A stretch of DNA of 64,000 nt, taken from the NCBI GenBank assembly GCA_021772075.1, contig JAETNQ010000006.1, positions 13,380 through 77,379 of the forward strand. The letters run 5' to 3'. A model generated the notes under the pieces. It did not search any database. It worked only from the letters and a program-made list of their open reading frames with translations, and was not told the DNA's origin. Below are positions 37,104 through 47,419 of this stretch, piece by piece. A program made the position numbers and the translations under genes. This stretch comes from Lachnospiraceae bacterium (GTDB taxonomy: Bacteria > Bacillota > Clostridia > Lachnospirales > Lachnospiraceae). Every line of letters starts with the position of its first letter. Positions within the stretch are counted from its first letter, which is position 1.

Positions 37104-38069
37104 ATGAAACAAAGGAACAATGATGGAAAAGGCGGGCATGTCCCGCTTTTTCTGCAAAAAAATAGAGAGAAAAAAGGGGACAGAAAACAGGAACTGCTTC
37201 ATCTGCTATGTGTTATGGTATTTGCAGGGACGGCAATATGGCTGGGCGGATATGGGATTTTTAATATATGGAGGAATATGCGCGCCTATCGAACACAGGA
37301 AAATCTGCAGGCGATCAGGAACGAGGCGGATGCACCGGCGCAGTTTGAAATGCAGTATGGCGGAAACGGGCTTCCGATAGCCGGAATTGATGCTTTTCTT
37401 GATGATTTGTTTCAGGAATGGCCGGTGACAGAACAGCGCCCTGCCGAACCGGAGATCATGCCCCGATATCAGTCGTTGTATGATTTGAACCATGATATGG
37501 CCGGGTGGCTGTCCATCGAGGGGACGGTGATCGATTACCCTGTCATGCAGACGCCGGAGGATGAAAATTATTACCTGAATCTTGATTTTTATGGACAGCC
37601 TGATAAAAACGGCTGTCTGATTCTGGATACGGACTCGGAGGCAGGGACAGGCACGAAGGATCACGGCTACACGGACGGCAATCTGCCTTCCACGAATTTG
37701 ATTATTCATGGACATACCATGAAATCAGGAGATATGTTTGGCAATTTGAAGCTTTATGCAGATGAGGAATATGGAAAGGAGCATAGAAAAATTTGTTTTG
37801 ACAGCTTGTACGAGGAGAGGGCGTATGAGCTGATCGCTGTATTTTACTCCCAAGTATATTATGAGAAGGATGAGGTTTTTAAATATTACAAGTTCTTTCA
37901 GGCAGATACAGAAGAGGAGTTCCGTGACTGGTATGGGAATATTAAGGCAATGTCCTTGTACGATACCGGCGTGCGCGCGGAATTTGGAGATGAATTTATT
38001 ACCCTTTCCTGCTGCTCTTATCAGGTAGAGGACGGGAGATTCGTGGTCGTGGGAAAAAGAATAGAATGA
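37104..38069 (+). CDS. srtB: Class B sortase
   Basis: GWLSIEGTVIDYPVMQ, IIHGH, ITLSCC, GRFVVVG. Confidence 0.9.
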   Translation: MKQRNNDGKGGHVPLFLQKNREKKGDRKQELLHLLCVMVFAGTAIWLGGYGIFNIWRNMRAYRTQENLQAIRNEADAPAQFEMQYGGNGLPIAGIDAFLDDLFQEWPVTEQRPAEPEIMPRYQSLYDLNHDMAGWLSIEGTVIDYPVMQTPEDENYYLNLDFYGQPDKNGCLILDTDSEAGTGTKDHGYTDGNLPSTNLIIHGHTMKSGDMFGNLKLYADEEYGKEHRKICFDSLYEERAYELIAVFYSQVYYEKDEVFKYYKFFQADTEEEFRDWYGNIKAMSLYDTGVRAEFGDEFITLSCCSYQVEDGRFVVVGKRIE

Positions 38070-38230
38070 AATGCTGTAGGTGCGGCATGATGACGGAGCC
38101 GGGGATTACGAGCTAAGGGAACATTTTGTTTCAAAGACAGGAATATACAGTTGCGTTGGAATATGTTATGCTTGTCCTTGGCAAGAGAGATAAATATAAC
38201 GAAAGTTAGAAACGGATGAGGTGAAGTATA

Positions 38231-38668
38231 ATGATAAGGGAAGCAAAGAAAGAGGATTTGAATGATTTACTTCATTTATATTTAGATTTGCATGAAGAAA
38301 AGATTCCAGAATATTCACCAAATTTGAGCAAAACATGGGAGACAATTCTGAATGACAAAAATCATCATATTATTTTGAATGAGGTAGATGGAATCCTTGT
38401 CTCATCTTGTGTGTGCGTTATTATCCCTAATCTTACAAGAAATGCAAGACCGTATGCCTTTATAGAGAATGTGGTTACACATGCGGACTATAGGGGAAAG
38501 GGATACGCTACGGAATGCCTCGACTATGCAAGAGAAATTGCGGTAGGAAATCACTGTTATAAAATGATGTTGCTAACGGGTTCCAAAAAACAAAGCACAT
38601 TAAACTTTTATGCAAAAGCCGGATATAATAGCATGGATAAAACGGCATTTATCCAGTGGCTTGAATGA
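38231..38668 (+). CDS. GNAT family N-acetyltransferase
   Basis: IENVVTHADYRGKGYA, FYAKAGY. Confidence 0.9.
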   Translation: MIREAKKEDLNDLLHLYLDLHEEKIPEYSPNLSKTWETILNDKNHHIILNEVDGILVSSCVCVIIPNLTRNARPYAFIENVVTHADYRGKGYATECLDYAREIAVGNHCYKMMLLTGSKKQSTLNFYAKAGYNSMDKTAFIQWLE

Positions 38669-38840
38669 AAGTCATATCGTAAAGATTATTTGGGAAGGAT
38701 GAAAAATAATGAGTGAATTAAGCTGTTAAAGCGTCTGGCAGGGGAACCCGACAGACAGCCTTATAGGAAAGCTGAACTCTCTGCCGGATAACGGGTGTAT
38801 GGAGATCGTGCATGACATCCATTGATTGAGGGGGACGAAG

Positions 38841-39020
38841 ATGATTATGAGTAAACCGGAAGTAAGCAGCAAATTTGATGTGGAGGATATTAGAAAAATC
38901 CGTGAATACAATTCCCTACGCCATATTCATATGACACCGGAGGAAATTATTGCGGAAACGCAGGAAGGGGCAGAAAAGGTAATGTGGATGCTGAAGCAAC
39001 GGAAAATTATGAAGGTTTAA
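38841..39020 (+). CDS. Small hypothetical protein
   Basis: RBS GAGGGGG; FDVEDIRKIREYN...MTPEEI. Confidence 0.6.
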   Translation: MIMSKPEVSSKFDVEDIRKIREYNSLRHIHMTPEEIIAETQEGAEKVMWMLKQRKIMKV

Positions 39021-39403
39021 AAATTTGGCAAATGATTTTTGTAAAAACCTAAGTTTGTGGTGGAATGTTTGAAATTTGCGGAAGAGTAAAAAGATGTTCA
39101 ATGAAAAATAGAATCAAGTATGCTAAAAGAATATCTCATTCACAGTTTGAAGAATCAGTATTGCCCATAGGAAGAGGGTAAACAACGGTATCGTCAGATA
39201 AAGAAAAAATTGCCATGGTAAAAGAAAATTAAAGTTCGTAGAAGGAAAATCGGGAAAGTCTACATTAATTAATTCTTTGTTGAAGAAAAGAATCTGCTGT
39301 TTTGTTGCTGGCATAAAAAATCCTCTTTTTCGATAAGAATTGTCATATCTTGATTCTTACCAAAAAAGAGGTATTTCTTTCCAAAGACACAAACTATTTT
39401 ACA

Positions 39404-40954
39404 CTACCAGTTTAAGAGGTCTCTCATTCTGTCAACCATGTTGTTGATAACAGTTGCCTGTTCCGATACATTTACGGTATCTTTCGCATTGTTTTCCGCC
39501 ATAGCGTTAATCGCATTGAACTGTCCGCTCTCATTTTTGATATTTTCGACAATATCCTGATTGATGGATACCGTTCTTTTGATTACATCGGTCTGTCTGT
39601 TGTGAGCGTCGCACATAATGTCTATGGCATCGCTGGATTCCTGCAAAAGCTGTGCAATGTCGCGTATGTGAGAAAATACGTTTTCGAAATATTCATTTTG
39701 CGTATTCATCTTTTCGGCGTTTTCATTTACCTGTGCCGTAATTTCCTGCGCATTTTTCTGTACCCGCTCAATTACCGGCTGCACAACCGACAGTGAATTC
39801 TGCGTACTTTTTGCAAGATTTCCCACTTCTGTCGCAACAACGGCAAATCCCTTTCCGGCTTCTCCGGCTCTTGCCGCCTCTATGGAAGCATTGAGCGCCA
39901 GCAGATTTGTGGAAGAGGAAATGTCGCTGATCAGATTCAGAGTAACGCCGATCTCCGCTACGGCCTCGGATAATTTCTTTGTGATTTCCGTCGTGTCCTT
40001 CATGGCATCGGACACTTCGTTGTTTATTTTATGTAAATTATTCAAAAGGGTTTCGTTCTCTGCCGATTTTTCAAGCAGGGTCTTAGAGGTGGATTCCACT
40101 TTCTGTACATTTTCAGAAACGGTGCTTCCGCATGCATTTAATTCTTCCAAATTATCTATACTTTCCGCTGTCTTCGAAATAAGCTGATTACTGCTGTCCA
40201 CTAACTGTTGGCTTGTGGCTGCAAGCTGTTGCGCGGAAGCGCTTTCGTTTTCAGAAGTGTTTGCCAGTGAAAGCCCTGCATCGTAAAGACTGCCGGACAA
40301 TATCTGTATTTCAGACAAGACATGCTGCACCCGTTCTGTATTCTCTTCCAGTTCGTCCTTTTTGGCATTGACGAGAAAATAGGAGACGAAAAATACAAAA
40401 ATGATCAGTCCCGTCAATGACAGTGTCAGTGCAACAAGACACATAATAATGTCTGTCAGAAACAGTTCATCTTTGACCGGCAGCAGATCCGTTCCCCGGA
40501 CAAACCAGCCGATAAACAGAGAAACCATACAGGCCAGACCGCTTAACACCAGCATTTTAATATCCAGGAAGAATGCCATCAATATCAGGAAAAAGAATAA
40601 AAATCCCCAGAAAGTTCTCGTCGGCAGCATGTACAGCAGATAATTCCACTGAATAACCAGGACCACGGCGGAAAAGATTTTGCCCATTTTGAGTTTTCCG
40701 TCTTTCAAATAGCCGTCTTCGCCGAATGACGTTTTGATCAATACAATGGCGATGGCAAAAAAGCAGACATCCATCACGCCCAGCATAATGGTCGCAATCC
40801 AGGGAACGGTCGGATATAATCCAAACAGTTTTTCTGTATTGAACATGACGGTAGCGCACATGCATGCGCAGACCAGTATAAAGAGTCCCCACTTATACAC
40901 AGTAGACAGGTACACATCCACCGATGTTTTCTGCTGCGTACTTTTTTGATTCAT
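39404..40954 (-). CDS. Methyl-accepting chemotaxis protein with multi-TM N-terminal sensor
   Basis: [29 protein letters not shown]; about six hydrophobic segments and no large extracellular domain. Confidence 0.92.
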
Positions 40955-40968
40955 GAAATGACCTCCTT

Positions 40969-41964
40969 CTAAAATTGATATAATTGTACAATATATGATA
41001 ACCCTGCACCCACAGTACTGATTATAATTTTATTTCCTGCAGCCGCATAGGTATCCCACATTCTATTCAGACACAAAATCGGACATGTATTTCCCGTATA
41101 TCCATATTCGCTTCCCACAAAATGATATTTTCCATCCGGAATATGTAATAATTCCAGTGTTTTCATATTGAACGCATCACTTAACTGAGAAAAAATGAAA
41201 AAATCTATATCTTCAACAGTTAAGGAATGATTATCAAGTACTTTCATTATCATATCATACCAAACCTGTGGCAGAAAGTCCATTTTGAAAGGATTCCAAA
41301 TCAGTCTTTTTTCATTTGGCTCGATAGATTTTAACGGAACTTTTGCCATGCCGCATCCTGGGTATATAACCTGTCTGTAAAATTGTGCGTCTACCTGAAC
41401 TAATGTATCTAAAAATCCCCGGCGTTCTGCCTCCTCACAGCTGTCCAGAGCAATACATGCTGCCGCATCTGCAAATGTCCCATATACCACGGTATCCGAC
41501 CATAATGCAATTGGTGTTATGCAAAAGCATCCTACAACCAATGCTTTGGATATATTGGAAGTTTGCATATACTTGTATACGACATCCAGACCCTGTATCA
41601 TTCCCGTACAGTTTGAATTCAAATCAAATGCTGTTTTTACATTCCGTAATTTGTCTTCATAAAGTCCGGTTAACGCCATAGCGTTAGACGGAAACAGATA
41701 TTCGGGCGTATCTGTACATACCACAATCATTTCAATGTCCTGTAAATCTATCCCGAGTTTCGCTGCACAATTGTCAATTGCATTTTTGCACATAGTAAGC
41801 GTATTTTCACCTTCTGATATAAAATACCGCTTTCTGCGTCCCAAATGTTCCATCAGGTTATGTGCGCTGAGTCCCCGTTTTTCAAAATGCTCGTCCAATT
41901 GCTGGTTATATACTTTATTAGCCGGAAAGTATACACCAGTTCCTCTTATAATAATATTTTTCAT
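40969..41964 (-). CDS. 3-oxoacyl-ACP synthase III (FabH)-like protein with non-canonical triad
   Basis: [35 protein letters not shown]; start set at 41964 by RBS GGAGGT spacing. Confidence 0.85.
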
Positions 41965-42295
41965 TACCATACCTCCCCTCGTATAGTAGTAAAATGGCAG
42001 CAAATATAATTCTGCAAACACCTCCTCCATCATTGTATAATGGATCAAACGGTATCAAAAATGTTTATCATAAAATACATGATAATAAGTGAAAATCTAT
42101 CTTATATCTTATCATTTATGTCGTTTTTTGACAAGACATAATGTAGTCTTCTGCATAAAACGATAAATTTTACAGTTACTTTTCACAGGGTGGGGAAAAT
42201 AGAGAGTCTTTTTTGGGATGCTTTGTGGCAAGCCGGCAGATAAAGCATTTGAGAAGTGCCGTCAAAAAGTGCTGGCTTATATATAAATAAAGGGC

Positions 42296-42327
42296 ACTGG
42301 CTTCCAGCTTGGCAACACTTGGCAACA
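42296..42327 (+). repeat. 32-bp direct repeat, left copy (att-like)
   Basis: ACTGGCTTCCAGCTTGGCAACACTTGGCAACA, identical to 45070-45101. Confidence 0.95.
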
Positions 42328-42682
42328 GATTTTTTTGCAGGTGGGATGAGGTTGGATTGTTGCTATGTTGAACAAATGAAAAGTGAATATGGAACAAATA
42401 TACCGGAGTGGAAAAAGTAGGAAAGAACAGCAATTCTTTGGTGGTATATAATGGAATATCCCATGTACTGGTAGTGGTGCATGGGATATTCGCAAAAAAT
42501 AAATATGAAAATATTAAATAGAACATAAAAGCGATCAAAATAGTAGAAATGGTATGTGCAAAGATGAGATATTAATAAATAGGATGCCAATGATAAAAGA
42601 AGGTTGTGAATAAATGAAAAAGTGGATATAATAATAGTGAAACAGATTCAGAGTTTTTTATATTTGGAAGGAGGTAAATCGC

Positions 42683-42850
42683 ATGGAAGTTGCAGTTAAG
42701 AAAATTTATGCGGAAACCTTGGAACAACAGCAGATAGAAGTAAGGCAGAGTGTGATGGATGGGTTAAGGCAGGCAAGAGAAGGAAAGACAAAGGATTTTA
42801 ACACAGTTTGTGACAGATTGGAGAAAAAGTATACGAATGCAAAAGTATAA
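42683..42850 (+). CDS. Putative antitoxin (55 aa)
   Basis: Not in ORF track. MEVAVKKIYAETLEQQQIEVRQSVMDGLRQAREGKTKDFNTVCDRLEKKYTNAKV; RBS GGAGGT; overlaps the toxin start. Confidence 0.75.
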   Translation: MEVAVKKIYAETLEQQQIEVRQSVMDGLRQAREGKTKDFNTVCDRLEKKYTNAKV

Positions 42851-43169
42851 AATTGAAATATCTGATTTGGCAGAGCAGGATTTGGAGTTTGCTGCTGACT
42901 ATATTGCATTTGATTTAAAAAATCCTTCTGCGGCAGTCAATACAGTACAAGGTATCCGTAAACAAATAAACAAACTACAGAATTTTCCAGAGCGTAATGA
43001 GTTAGATGATGATCCAGTGTTGGCGGGTCTGGGTGTTCGTATGGATTATTATAAGAATTACAAAATTTATTATGTGGTAGAGGACAAGTTGGTAATAATT
43101 GTAAGGATTTTACATATGCTGGTGGACAGTAGAGCGTGGTTATATCGGACATTTGGAATGAAAGATTAA
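42837..43169 (+). CDS. RelE/ParE family toxin
   Basis: YKIEISDLAEQDL...LQNFPER...NYKIYY...IVRILH. Confidence 0.88.
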   Translation: MQKYKIEISDLAEQDLEFAADYIAFDLKNPSAAVNTVQGIRKQINKLQNFPERNELDDDPVLAGLGVRMDYYKNYKIYYVVEDKLVIIVRILHMLVDSRAWLYRTFGMKD

Positions 43170-43485
43170 GCTGCGGCGTTTATTGATAGAATTCGATAGA
43201 TAAATTCAGGGCATGGCGGATAGCCATGTCTTTATTATTTCACGAATTCTAAAGTTATTATCGGCGATGCAAAGGTATATGATTGTATTATTAGAAGAGA
43301 ACAGCAGAATATATTAATAACATGGCTGACTTGAAATTTTAAATTCCAGTGCAGAAGTAAATTCCACTGTAGTTTAAAATTTATACGAAAATAGAGATTT
43401 TTAGGAGTAAAAACACCCGATTTCTGTTATAATCCTGTTTTTAACAGTTGTGTAGGAAACAAATCGCTGTAACCCCAGTATTTAT

Positions 43486-45063
43486 GAGGGCACTGAAAAA
43501 GTCTGATTCTTTATGAAAAGAATCGGGCTTTTTCTAATGGAAAGAGTTATAATAAAAGAAAAGACAATGGAGATTCCAGAATGCTGAGAGATCATTCACA
43601 AATGACGCTGTCGTTATCGCCCTATCAGGGAATTTATGATGCCATTATTCCGGCAAACCACCTTCTGCGCAGGATCAAGGAGAACATAGATTTCAGTTTT
43701 GTAAATCCAATGCTGCGTAAACAGTATTGTGAAAGGTTTGGGCGTCCGGCAAAAGAACCGGGGATGATGTTCAAACTGCTGTTTTTGAAAAAGCTGTACG
43801 ACTTGTCCGATGAAACCCTGATCAGCAGTGCCCAGACAGATATGGCATATAAGTTTTTTCTGGATCTGGAACCAGAAGCGAAAATGGTTGATCCCAGTCT
43901 TCTGACGAAATTCAGAAAGACCCGTATTACAGAAGATATTTTGGAAGAAATGCTGAAGGAAACGATACAGCAGGCTCTGGATAAACGGCTTCGGAAAGAA
44001 ATCTATAAAAGTGCCTTTGAATTATCAGAAATATTTCCAGAGAAACCATCTCTGGAAGCCGGACTGGATGAGGAGATTGCCTATACGCGAGAACTGCTCA
44101 GGGTTCTTGAGGAGGGGATAGCGGCGAGCGGGAACCGAAAGATGCAGGATCTTTCCCAAAAAATGAAGGAACTGCTTGAGGATGAGCAGATCAGGGATAT
44201 CCGGTCGAAGGATGACAGGGATGCACGGTTCGGGCATAAAACATCAACAAGCACATTTTACGGATATAAAAACCACCCGGCAATGACACAGGAACGTCTG
44301 ACCGCAGGGATAAGCGTGACCCATGGAGGGGCGCCAGACGGGCAGGAATTACCGGGGCTGCTGGAAAAAGCACAGAAAAACGGGCTAAAGGCAACAGAAG
44401 TGATAGGAGATATGGCATATGTCAGCGACGATAATCTGGAAACCTGCGGGGAAGGGATCACATTGATAGCGCGGACAAATACAGCTGTAGCGGCGGCAGC
44501 AAGCGGGGAGCTGGAGGAAGGTTTCTGTTATAATAAGGATGCCGGAATGCTGCAGTGCCCAGCCGGTGAACTGGCGATGCGGGTGGAAAAGCGGACCGCA
44601 GCGAATGGAAATATCTATTTGAGGTATGTATTCAGCAAGGTCAAATGCAGGAAATGCCCATTAAGGGAAAGCTGCCGTGTAGGGAAAGGGAAATCAAAAG
44701 AACGCAGTTACAGCATGACGCAGGCAAGTGAGAAGAACCTGGGGCGGCTTAAATTTGAGGGAAGCGAATATTTCAGGGAGCGGATGAAGATCCGGCACCG
44801 GATGGAAGAAAAGAATGGAGAATTGAAAGAAGCCCACGGATTGCGCAGGGCAGATTCAAGAGGGCTGTTTGCCATGGAACCGCAGATGTATTTCACGGCG
44901 TTTGTGGCAAATGTGAAGAGGATCACAAAGCTGGCCGAGCCGGTTACGCAATAAGGAGGCTCTCTCTTTTTGCATGTTTTAGAATAAATTTGTGTATAGA
45001 AGCTGTTTATATATAGAAGGAAAAAACTCCCGCTATAAAAAGTGGGAGTTTTTCAGTACCCTC
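43486..45063 (+). mobile_element. IS1182-family insertion sequence (probably defective)
   Basis: Terminal IRs GAGGGCACTGAAAAAGTC (43486-43503) and GAGTTTTTCAGTACCCTC (45046-45063), 16/18 match; single transposase ORF. Confidence 0.85.
43581..44954 (+). pseudogene. IS1182 transposase with apparent in-frame internal deletion
   Basis: GRPAKEPGMMFK, DARFGHK, FYGYKNH, GDMAY, CPAG, EEKNGELK present; the usual IVD(S/A)TH segment is missing at ALDK/RLRKEI. Confidence 0.65.
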
Positions 45064-45387: not shown

Positions 45388-45501
45388 TAGTGTGGAAAGA
45401 AGTTCTAAGGCTCACAGCAAAGGCTGTTTCGCCAAGAACTTCTAAATTCCACACCGAAGAATGCCTGAAAAGCGGCATTCTTCCCGTTGATGGTTTGTGC
45501 C
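45388..45501 (+). repeat. ~115-nt structured dispersed element, copy A
   Basis: Long interrupted hairpin plus GAAGAATGCC/GGCATTCTTC hairpin; homologous to 47258, 49376 and 53866. Confidence 0.92.
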
Positions 45502-47023: not shown

Positions 47024-47260
47024 ATGCAGGAAAAATGGAAAGAATTACAGGTGGTTTTAGAGGAAATGAAAACGATGAAGAAAAAGGAGTATTTTCTGAT
47101 GCTGGCGGTATGCCTGCTTTCCGGCCTGGTGGTCGGGATGCTGGTTTCCCCGAAAAAACAAGTTATGGTGGGGAGCAATAATGGAAATAATAACCGCAGC
47201 GGCAAAGGAAGATGCGGGGAATGTGATTTTGAAGACGGAGATTATGACTGGGAAGATTAG
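47024..47260 (+). CDS. Small single-TM hypothetical protein
   Basis: Strong RBS AGGAGG; TM YFLMLAVCLLSGLVVGMLV; Asn-rich and acidic tail. Confidence 0.7.
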   Translation: MQEKWKELQVVLEEMKTMKKKEYFLMLAVCLLSGLVVGMLVSPKKQVMVGSNNGNNNRSGKGRCGECDFEDGDYDWED

Positions 47261-47389
47261 CGTGAGAAGAACTTCTAAGACTTGCACCAGTGGGTGCTTC
47301 GTCAAGAAGTTCTAGACTTGCTTCGCAAGTCTTTCTCACGCCGGAGAACGCCTGAAATACGGCGTTCTTCTCATGGATGATTTATGCCG
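47258..47389 (+). repeat. ~115-nt structured dispersed element, copy B (extra hairpin)
   Basis: Same architecture plus inserted AGACTTGC-TTC-GCAAGTCT. Confidence 0.9.
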
Positions 47390-47419
47390 TGGAGAAATTT
47401 TGGAAAGGAGAAGAAAAAA

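Follow-up and report, generated by a model that had tools for sequence, protein, structure and literature searches.

We describe a gene pair in a 64,000-nucleotide stretch of DNA from a Lachnospiraceae bacterium (assembly GCA_021772075.1, contig JAETNQ010000006.1; the whole stretch is called the window below). The upstream gene encodes a protein with the fold of 3-ketoacyl-acyl carrier protein (ACP) synthase III (KAS-III), the fold of FabH, and the downstream gene encodes a methyl-accepting chemotaxis protein (MCP) whose sensor domain is embedded in the membrane. We hypothesize, with moderate confidence, that both proteins handle one hydrophobic acyl compound and form a self-contained sensory cassette. 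The pairing spans about 60 species of gut Clostridia, and this comparative evidence makes a functional coupling of the two proteins very likely.

The KAS protein is only distantly related to characterized FabH enzymes. All NCBIfam FabH cut-offs were missed (116 bits against 249 for NF006829 and 97 bits against 292 for TIGR00747), and each of the 189 homologous clusters is either unnamed or labelled 'hypothetical'. An AlphaFold2 (AF2) model of the protein has a predicted local distance difference test score (pLDDT) of 85.7 and a predicted template modelling score (pTM) of 0.87. Foldseek places this model at a template modelling score of 0.83 to the FabH structures 4ryb, 4dfe and 6x7r, at about 21% identity, with BioZ and PqsD ranking close behind. 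The protein is predicted to be cytoplasmic because it has no hydrophobic N-terminus.

To locate the catalytic columns we used single-sequence and profile hidden Markov model (HMM) alignments to solved FabH structures. The nucleophile is kept as Cys119, while Ser259 and Tyr289 occupy the columns of the catalytic His and Asn, which are H244 and N274 in E. coli FabH and are needed there for decarboxylative condensation. The initial annotation of this locus had read the same two replacements from the DNA alone, and the structure-based alignments bear it out. Down to 39% identity, the residues N116, N118, C119, S259, Q260, Y287 and Y289 are invariant in the KAS family. We also considered a shifted catalytic Asn in the motif G-N292-T and rejected it, N292 being Val in members at 39-48% identity while Y289 is invariant. 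Compared with FabH (E. coli 1hn9/6x7r and Burkholderia 4dfe), the window protein shares the thiolase/KAS-III fold, a similar length, the position of the Cys and the C-terminal Gly-rich loop; it differs in its low identity, in the His to Ser and Asn to Tyr replacements, in the loss of the coenzyme A (CoA) clamp and of the docking Arg, and in having no fab context. Because fold and nucleophile are kept and the active site is rebuilt with other invariant polar residues, the pattern suggests an active site that has been remodelled towards a changed chemistry rather than one that has decayed.

An ordinary FabH paralogue that neighbours an MCP gene by chance would explain the FabH fold and the FabHs found as closest PDB relatives, yet His and Asn are replaced family-wide and the scores lie far under the NCBIfam cut-offs. 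The host genome, 99.95% complete, contains no canonical FabH, its sole TIGR00747 match being the window KAS gene itself (96.5 bits), and a search of the same genome gave no match to FabF. Since both are missing, the host probably has no type II fatty-acid synthesis, in which case a primer synthase would have nothing to prime, and it may be a fatty-acid auxotroph. It has three PP-binding (ACP-like) matches and also encodes an acyl-ACP thioesterase. We then looked at a sample of one genome per genus from 400 Lachnospiraceae genera, where the enzyme occurs in nine genomes (39-100% identity). Canonical FabH coexists with the Cys-Ser-Tyr gene in six of these nine carriers and is absent from three, and a same-genus genome has neither gene. 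A role of the Cys-Ser-Tyr gene as a replacement for FabH was rejected on three grounds: six carriers have a true FabH, the same-genus genome does without both, and the host has no FabF. The KAS gene is, on this comparative evidence, independent of fatty-acid synthesis. Adding the MCP adjacency conserved in about 60 species, we consider a chance-neighbouring FabH paralogue effectively refuted; an ordinary fabH primer synthase was among the outcomes that the initial annotation had listed as refuting its proposal.

To estimate how strictly the two genes are linked, we scanned one genome per species and recovered 58 KAS loci, nearly all of them from Lachnospiraceae metagenome-assembled genomes (MAGs), whose names are uncertain. 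In 54 of the 58, the next gene downstream, on the same strand, encodes a full-length orthologous MCP (37-96% identity over residues 1 to about 514), and the spacers of 47 orthologous pairs measure 1-52 bp. Exceptions to the pairing correspond to decay or rearrangement: one MCP remnant, one split MCP and three loci with the enzyme alone. The genus sample supplied deeper loci, with KAS identities of 39-65%, and the MCP is directly downstream in all six of these; counted over the genus sample as a whole, 9 of 9 positive genera have the pair. The pairwise identities of the KAS and MCP proteins correlate with r = 0.78 over 48 pairs. CheW is present in all nine carrier genomes, compared to 55% of the family sample, and the host genome has four matches to it. 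The conserved linkage that the initial annotation had proposed as a check of its reading is thus borne out.

Clustering of all open reading frames (ORFs) in these loci showed that only KAS and MCP are conserved, in 56 loci each, and no other neighbour cluster reaches more than 8 of the 58. A third conserved gene of the cassette, such as an ACP, an exporter or a ligase, was sought and not found among the 58 loci. One Lachnospiraceae MAG has the order MCP-KAS-MCP (L024 6099-10573), and its two MCP copies, each with six transmembrane (TM) helices, are sisters on the tree.

A class-level genome sample extended these observations to three further families of Clostridia, in which Cys-Ser-Tyr genes were found with an adjacent MCP in 9 of 16 cases. 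Chance alone would put the two side by side in a few percent of cases, given some 30 MCP genes in each genome. Two of the nine pairs are co-directional and have an MCP of the same TM-domain family. Six are divergent and have a second kind of multi-TM MCP that is also HAMP-less (488-518 amino acids) and carries the invariant motif S-x-Y-x-D-x-R; the remaining one is convergent with an ordinary receptor with a four-helix bundle and HAMP. An hhalign comparison of the two TM domains aligns a common P...W / aromatic-x-D-(I/L)-(K/R) pattern at E = 0.066, and homology of the Lachnospiraceae six-helix domain to the second MCP family is thus not significant. Two tandem copies of a divergent KAS/MCP pair with this second MCP family share one locus (L121 4621-10253; L122 6392-12013).

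A different explanation for the linkage is hitch-hiking of two functionally unrelated genes on a mobile fragment. The pair does lie in a variable segment flanked by an insertion sequence (IS) and a toxin-antitoxin (TA) pair, this segment is replaced in a congeneric genome, and the contexts differ between species. Against this, the linkage persists down to 39% identity for KAS and 35% for the MCP, it persists in other Clostridia families even where gene orientation or MCP family has changed, and both proteins are under strong purifying selection. We consider hitch-hiking very improbable.

The receptor has an unusual architecture. The AF2 model places helices at residues 11-43, 52-76, 87-109, 116-127, 132-157 and 165-214, joined by short loops with no extracellular domain. 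The six-helix domain has no match to a Pfam family and no fold match in the PDB (best Foldseek E-value 0.57). Invariant positions of the MCP are K92, Q102, N104, P111, W116, D131, S145, P159, K198 and the juxtamembrane A-K-K-D-E; the polar residues K92, Q102, N104, D131 and S145 lie within or beside predicted helices. The cytoplasmic hairpin has its tip at residues 361-370 within a conserved tip motif at 361-374. Its C-arm is 151 residues long (about 22 heptads) and its N-arm, counted from the membrane, 169, giving a receptor of about 44 heptads. A HAMP linker is typical of transmembrane MCPs without being universal. Pfam gave no HAMP match in this MCP, and a HAMP domain of about 50 residues does not fit because the N-arm has only 169 residues to the 151 of the C-arm. 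The model, the Pfam search and the arm lengths together uphold the initial annotation, which had described about six TM helices with neither an extracellular domain nor a clear HAMP. One site at 238-247 fits the methylation consensus [ASTG]2-x2-[EQ]2-x2-[ASTG]2 and is kept in 38 of 48 orthologues; the hairpin is predicted to be methylatable.

To find out how far the six-helix domain is tied to the enzyme, we searched for it in 401 sampled genomes and found it in 25, namely all nine carriers plus 16 that have no such enzyme. The domain is modular. It is fused to MCP hairpins, to AgrC-type kinases (HATPase_c_5), to GGDEF-EAL proteins and to hybrid kinases. In enzyme-less Lachnospiraceae, AgrC-type histidine kinases of about 400 amino acids often adjoin six-TM MCPs together with LytTR regulators (loci in Table 1), and neither AgrB/AgrD nor another synthase was found beside the AgrC-type kinases that carry the domain. 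The other fusions (L071 5973-8354, L072 1839-4628 and L038 6206-8518) are a GGDEF-EAL protein of 793 amino acids and hybrid kinases of 929 (REC and Hpt) and 770 amino acids (two REC). The gene of the 770-residue hybrid kinase immediately follows a KAS-MCP pair.

Close orthologues of the window MCP also occur in genomes that have no Cys-Ser-Tyr gene, with TM domains 59-75% and hairpins 57-65% identical to it. In the MCP tree, copies from these genomes branch at scattered points within enzyme-linked clades, which corresponds to at least nine changes. Of the positions with at least 90% conservation in linked copies, they retain 93-94%, and a search for positions conserved in KAS-linked and relaxed in KAS-less MCPs gave only one weak column. 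The dependence, as judged from gene content, is one-sided: the enzyme is nearly always found with such a receptor, and the receptor is often found in a genome without the enzyme. Orphan receptors of this kind fit a ligand that also comes from outside the cell.

The host genome itself has three members of the six-helix domain family in three deep subclades, one of which adjoins the enzyme. Its two paralogues of the six-TM MCP without an adjacent enzyme are at C27:4322-5866 and C36:101877-103487. The first is followed 46 bp on by the acyl-ACP thioesterase gene (PF01643, C27:5912-6652) and CvfB, and the second comes after rsgA and the PASTA-kinase operon. We considered the thioesterase as a clue to a lipid ligand and set it aside as probably a coincidence, it being absent from all 58 KAS loci.

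To place the enzyme in a wider context, we searched 1.8 billion representatives (a library clustered at 50% identity) with a profile and recovered 175 clusters at E <= 1e-30. Among the top 150 representatives, 106 have Ser or Thr at the His position and Tyr at the Asn position (Cys-Ser-Tyr in 88, Cys-Thr-Tyr in 18). The canonical Cys-His-Asn triad is found in 13, which have the lowest scores of the 150. A D-N-N-C motif is retained across most of this wider group. These results point to a large uncharacterised clade of Cys-Ser/Thr-Tyr proteins. One representative (P0341, 999 amino acids) is a fusion that combines adenylation (AMP-binding), carrier (PP-binding) and Cys-Ser-Tyr KAS-III-like domains, which argues that activated acyl groups bound as thioesters would be substrates for at least some members of the clade. 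An operon found in one genus of a different Clostridia family begins with the Cys-Ser-Tyr gene and also contains a small ORF (132-180 amino acids) and a MatE exporter (L115 56-3171 and L119 6489-9562). No consistent partner was found for Cys-Ser-Tyr genes that have no MCP nearby; their neighbours are a mixture of glycosyltransferases, a MatE exporter and restriction fragments.

What chemistry could such an active site support? The closest functional analogues are CerJ, ChlB3 and DpsC, FabH-fold proteins that have lost decarboxylative condensation and instead transfer acyl groups via the Cys, or via a Ser in DpsC (PMC9573744). The triad of these KAS-III-like acyltransferases is Cys-His-Asp, with the His at about position 295 and the Asp five residues later (PMC9573744). 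In the window protein the corresponding stretch reads G-Y-T-G-N-T-C-P and has no conserved His or Asp. The known enzymes, with their Cys/Ser-His-Asp or related triads, are actinobacterial and belong to large clusters with carrier proteins, whereas the window protein has Cys-Ser-Tyr and the MCP as its sole conserved partner. By analogy, acyl transfer of this general kind is the most likely chemistry, and the invariant Cys119 is consistent, at the level of sequence, with an acyl-Cys intermediate.

The comparisons above establish the folds, the residue substitutions, the conserved pairing, the modular sensor domain and the independence of the pair from fatty-acid synthesis. What we infer is an active enzyme, a substrate or product of it that serves as ligand of the receptor, and a direction for the reaction. 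The cytoplasmic thiolase-fold enzyme would form an acyl-cysteine intermediate via Cys119, and FabH-type decarboxylative condensation would be excluded with Ser259 and Tyr289 in place of His and Asn. It would make, modify or consume a hydrophobic acyl compound, which may be a lipid-like small molecule or a membrane lipid. The six-helix domain would then detect this compound within the bilayer, and the signal would pass from the sixth TM helix directly into the methylatable hairpin and on to the CheA/CheW array of the cell. We favour a working acyl-enzyme because of the conserved rebuilt active site, the fusion of adenylation, carrier and KAS domains, and the exporter operon. Detection of the ligand in the membrane is favoured because the sensor domain is modular and its invariant polar residues lie within or beside helices.

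Several observations weigh against this interpretation. The CoA-adenine clamp of FabH is not kept, W32 corresponding to a gap or variable position and R151 to an invariant P151, and the ACP-docking R249 corresponds to a variable position in the KAS family (positions in E. coli FabH numbering). This lack of conserved contact residues argues against a simple synthase that uses CoA or ACP. Nor does the cassette include an exporter, a carrier protein or a further biosynthetic gene, and the 14-bp gap with its ribosome-binding site (RBS) would equally suit two subunits of one complex. The receptor is fully conserved in enzyme-less genomes, and because of this the enzyme would not be needed for sensing as such.

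The cassette could work in more than one direction. Within the favoured interpretation we lean, tentatively, to signal synthesis, because genomes with only the receptor resemble those with 'solo' receptors and because the same domain drives AgrC-type kinases. Indirect hints of a diffusible product come from the orphan receptors, from the adenylation-carrier-KAS fusion and from the MatE operon of one genus. Alternatively, a fatty-acid auxotroph may use the cassette to consume or assimilate an external lipid; together with remodelling of membrane lipids this takes up the remainder of our confidence. The broader part of the proposal in the initial annotation, that the enzyme handles a hydrophobic molecule or serves as a co-sensor and is read by the membrane-embedded MCP, holds up as the best-supported general reading, while its specific signal synthase and receptor module remains a proposal.

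It is conceivable, if rather doubtful, that the cassette serves quorum sensing by chemotaxis. The enzyme would make a diffusible lipid-like autoinducer, and the six-helix domain would be its dedicated receptor, steering swimming to or from the producers. Species without the enzyme would eavesdrop, and the kinase and GGDEF-EAL fusions would couple the same or related signals to transcription and cyclic di-GMP. This would amount to a new chemical language among motile gut Clostridia.

Precedents for hydrophobic signals of this kind exist. CqsS and RpfC sense hydrophobic ligands via multi-TM domains without a large extracellular part. As in CqsA/CqsS and RpfF/RpfC, the enzyme gene adjoins the receptor gene and receptor-only 'solo' genomes occur here too. 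The output is chemotaxis in our case, compared to a kinase or a transcription factor in CqsA/CqsS, RpfF/RpfC, PpyS/PluR and DarABC/PauR, and the enzyme family differs. The comparison with PpyS and DarB made earlier for this locus stands only as an analogy, the NCBIfam DarB/StlD model scoring 33 bits against a cut-off of 550. On the receptor side, topology class III chemoreceptors such as Htr8 of Halobacterium are multi-TM proteins with no periplasmic domain and are presumed to sense within the membrane. The window MCP shares with them several TM helices and the absence of an extracytoplasmic ligand-binding domain; it differs in that its six-helix domain is a distinct family, it lacks a HAMP and its gene is linked to that of an enzyme.

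One explanation for the lost CoA and ACP contacts is that the KAS-like protein is a co-sensor subunit. It would dock 2:2 on the MCP dimer and report the acyl-thioester or fatty-acid pool, resulting in metabolism-dependent taxis, and the role of the Cys may be limited to trapping the ligand covalently; the protein would then not be a pathway enzyme. Both partners belong to families of homodimers, KAS-III enzymes and MCPs, which suits such a complex, as does the near-constant company of an MCP, expected of an accessory subunit; the 14-bp spacing with its own RBS would fit equimolar synthesis. A precedent is SpoVAD, a soluble protein of thiolase/ketoacyl-synthase fold with no known catalytic activity, which has a small-molecule ligand and works in complex with SpoVAC and SpoVAEb, multi-TM proteins from the same operon (PMC9186386). 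The parallel is limited, in that there is no detectable sequence relationship between SpoVAD and the window protein (Pfam SpoVAD, PF07451, does not match it), and the SpoVAD partners are channel subunits with a sporulation-specific role. The only hint of a relationship is an 18-bit, sub-threshold PF07451 match to a distant relative, P0331. Moreover, orphan MCPs show no relaxed positions and hence reveal no docking surface, the strictly invariant polar site (N116, N118, C119, S259, Q260, Y287 and Y289) is more typical of catalysis, and relatives are fused to adenylation and carrier domains or stand with no MCP nearby. We regard a co-sensor as the main alternative, possible and on balance rather unlikely.

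To our knowledge there is no precedent for acylation of an MCP, which counts against a further explanation, that the KAS-like protein is an acyltransferase modifying its receptor. The enzyme would acylate the MCP or a tightly bound lipid, tuning or maturing the receptor as CheR, CheB and CheD do by other chemistry. The strict linkage to the receptor gene and the invariant K92, S145, K198 and A-K-K-D-E in the TM domain and juxtamembrane linker are compatible with this, and KAS-III-like enzymes without condensing activity (ChlB3, CerJ and DpsC) are acyltransferases that use the same Cys (PMC9573744). Orphan MCPs, however, keep the same residues without the enzyme, and the KAS-like protein has no counterpart of the His-Asp pair found in the described acyltransferases. 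Such a receptor-modifying role is in our view improbable.

A literature search turned up no relevant paper on a link between KAS-III and MCPs or on Cys-only KAS-III variants of this kind. KAS-III-like enzymes, multi-TM chemoreceptors and the linkage of receptor and enzyme genes are each of a known kind, and our analysis suggests that their combination in one enzyme-plus-receptor module is undescribed. The Cys-Ser/Thr-Tyr KAS-III-fold proteins, the six-helix sensor domain and their genetic link in motile gut Lachnospiraceae and related Clostridia are all uncharacterised. The domain feeds chemotaxis, two-component, cyclic di-GMP and phosphorelay outputs. We know of almost no ligands of membrane-embedded chemoreceptors, and the adjacent enzyme offers a direct experimental handle on the ligand of this one. 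Should the compound be made by the cell itself and secreted, the two genes would form a dedicated pair of synthase and chemoreceptor, of which we know no example described so far. If it is instead a dietary or host lipid, the cassette would explain how fatty-acid-auxotrophic gut commensals locate lipids.

The features of the locus are collected in Table 1. That the two genes are 14 bp apart, with no ACP or fab genes nearby, had been noted in the initial annotation, and the gene coordinates and the Pfam matches of the neighbouring ORFs confirm it. The spacer and its RBS would suit translational coupling within one operon. As the start of the KAS gene we took the ATG at 41964, which has the better RBS spacing (GGAGG 7 nt upstream). 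The consensus scan that yielded the candidate promoter found 17 sites against 12 expected by chance.

Table 1. Features of the KAS/MCP locus (window positions) and loci of AgrC-type kinases in other genomes
Feature	Position	Strand	Remarks
KAS-III/FabH-fold protein gene, 331 amino acids	40969..41964	-	Pfam ACP_syn_III and ACP_syn_III_C
Cys119 codon, nucleophile	41608..41610	-	motif D-x-N-S-N-C (NSNC(119)TG); aligns with FabH catalytic Cys
Ser259 codon	41188..41190	-	motif F-S-Q-L-S; FabH catalytic His column in HMM alignments
Tyr289 codon	41098..41100	-	motif Y-G-Y-T-G; FabH catalytic Asn column in HMM alignments
Intergenic spacer, 14 bp	40955..40968	-	GGAGG 7 nt ahead of the MCP ATG, read directly
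MCP gene, 516 amino acids	39404..40954	-	Pfam MCPsignal (PF00015), E = 1.6e-27
Six-helix membrane sensor domain, residues ~1-197	40364..40954	-	AF2 model, pLDDT 84
Cytoplasmic MCP signalling hairpin, residues ~198-516, stop codon included	39404..40363	-	joins sixth TM helix directly; MCPsignal
Candidate sigma-70-type promoter, TTGTCA-17-TAAGAT with extended TG	42106..42134	-	consensus scan, upstream of KAS gene; low confidence
AgrC-type histidine kinase loci	L066 5662-7743; L067 3112-5268; L068 5031-6967; L069 4623-6659 and 8228-10406; L070 4302-6219		

The neighbours of the pair are a sortase, a GNAT acetyltransferase, a ParE toxin and an IS transposase. Directly upstream, at 42810-44954, are the gene of the ParE-family toxin and the transposase (DUF772 and DDE_Tnp_1_6). 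In a same-genus genome the flanks are syntenic, and a different 6.5-kb segment replaces the 5.9 kb with the KAS/MCP pair, the TA pair and the IS; because of this different insert, the segment with the pair is considered accessory. The guanine-plus-cytosine (GC) content is 37.7% for the KAS gene, 44.0% for the MCP gene and 38.5% for positions 38000-43500, compared to a window mean of 45.1%. Of the accessory low-GC patch described at first, the accessory nature therefore stands, and low GC is clear for the enzyme gene only, within the accessory segment. Further along the window, two stretches of about 100-130 nt (45388-45484 and 47259-47390) match dozens of sites in the same-genus genome G386 at 73-93% identity and look like members of a dispersed repeat family.

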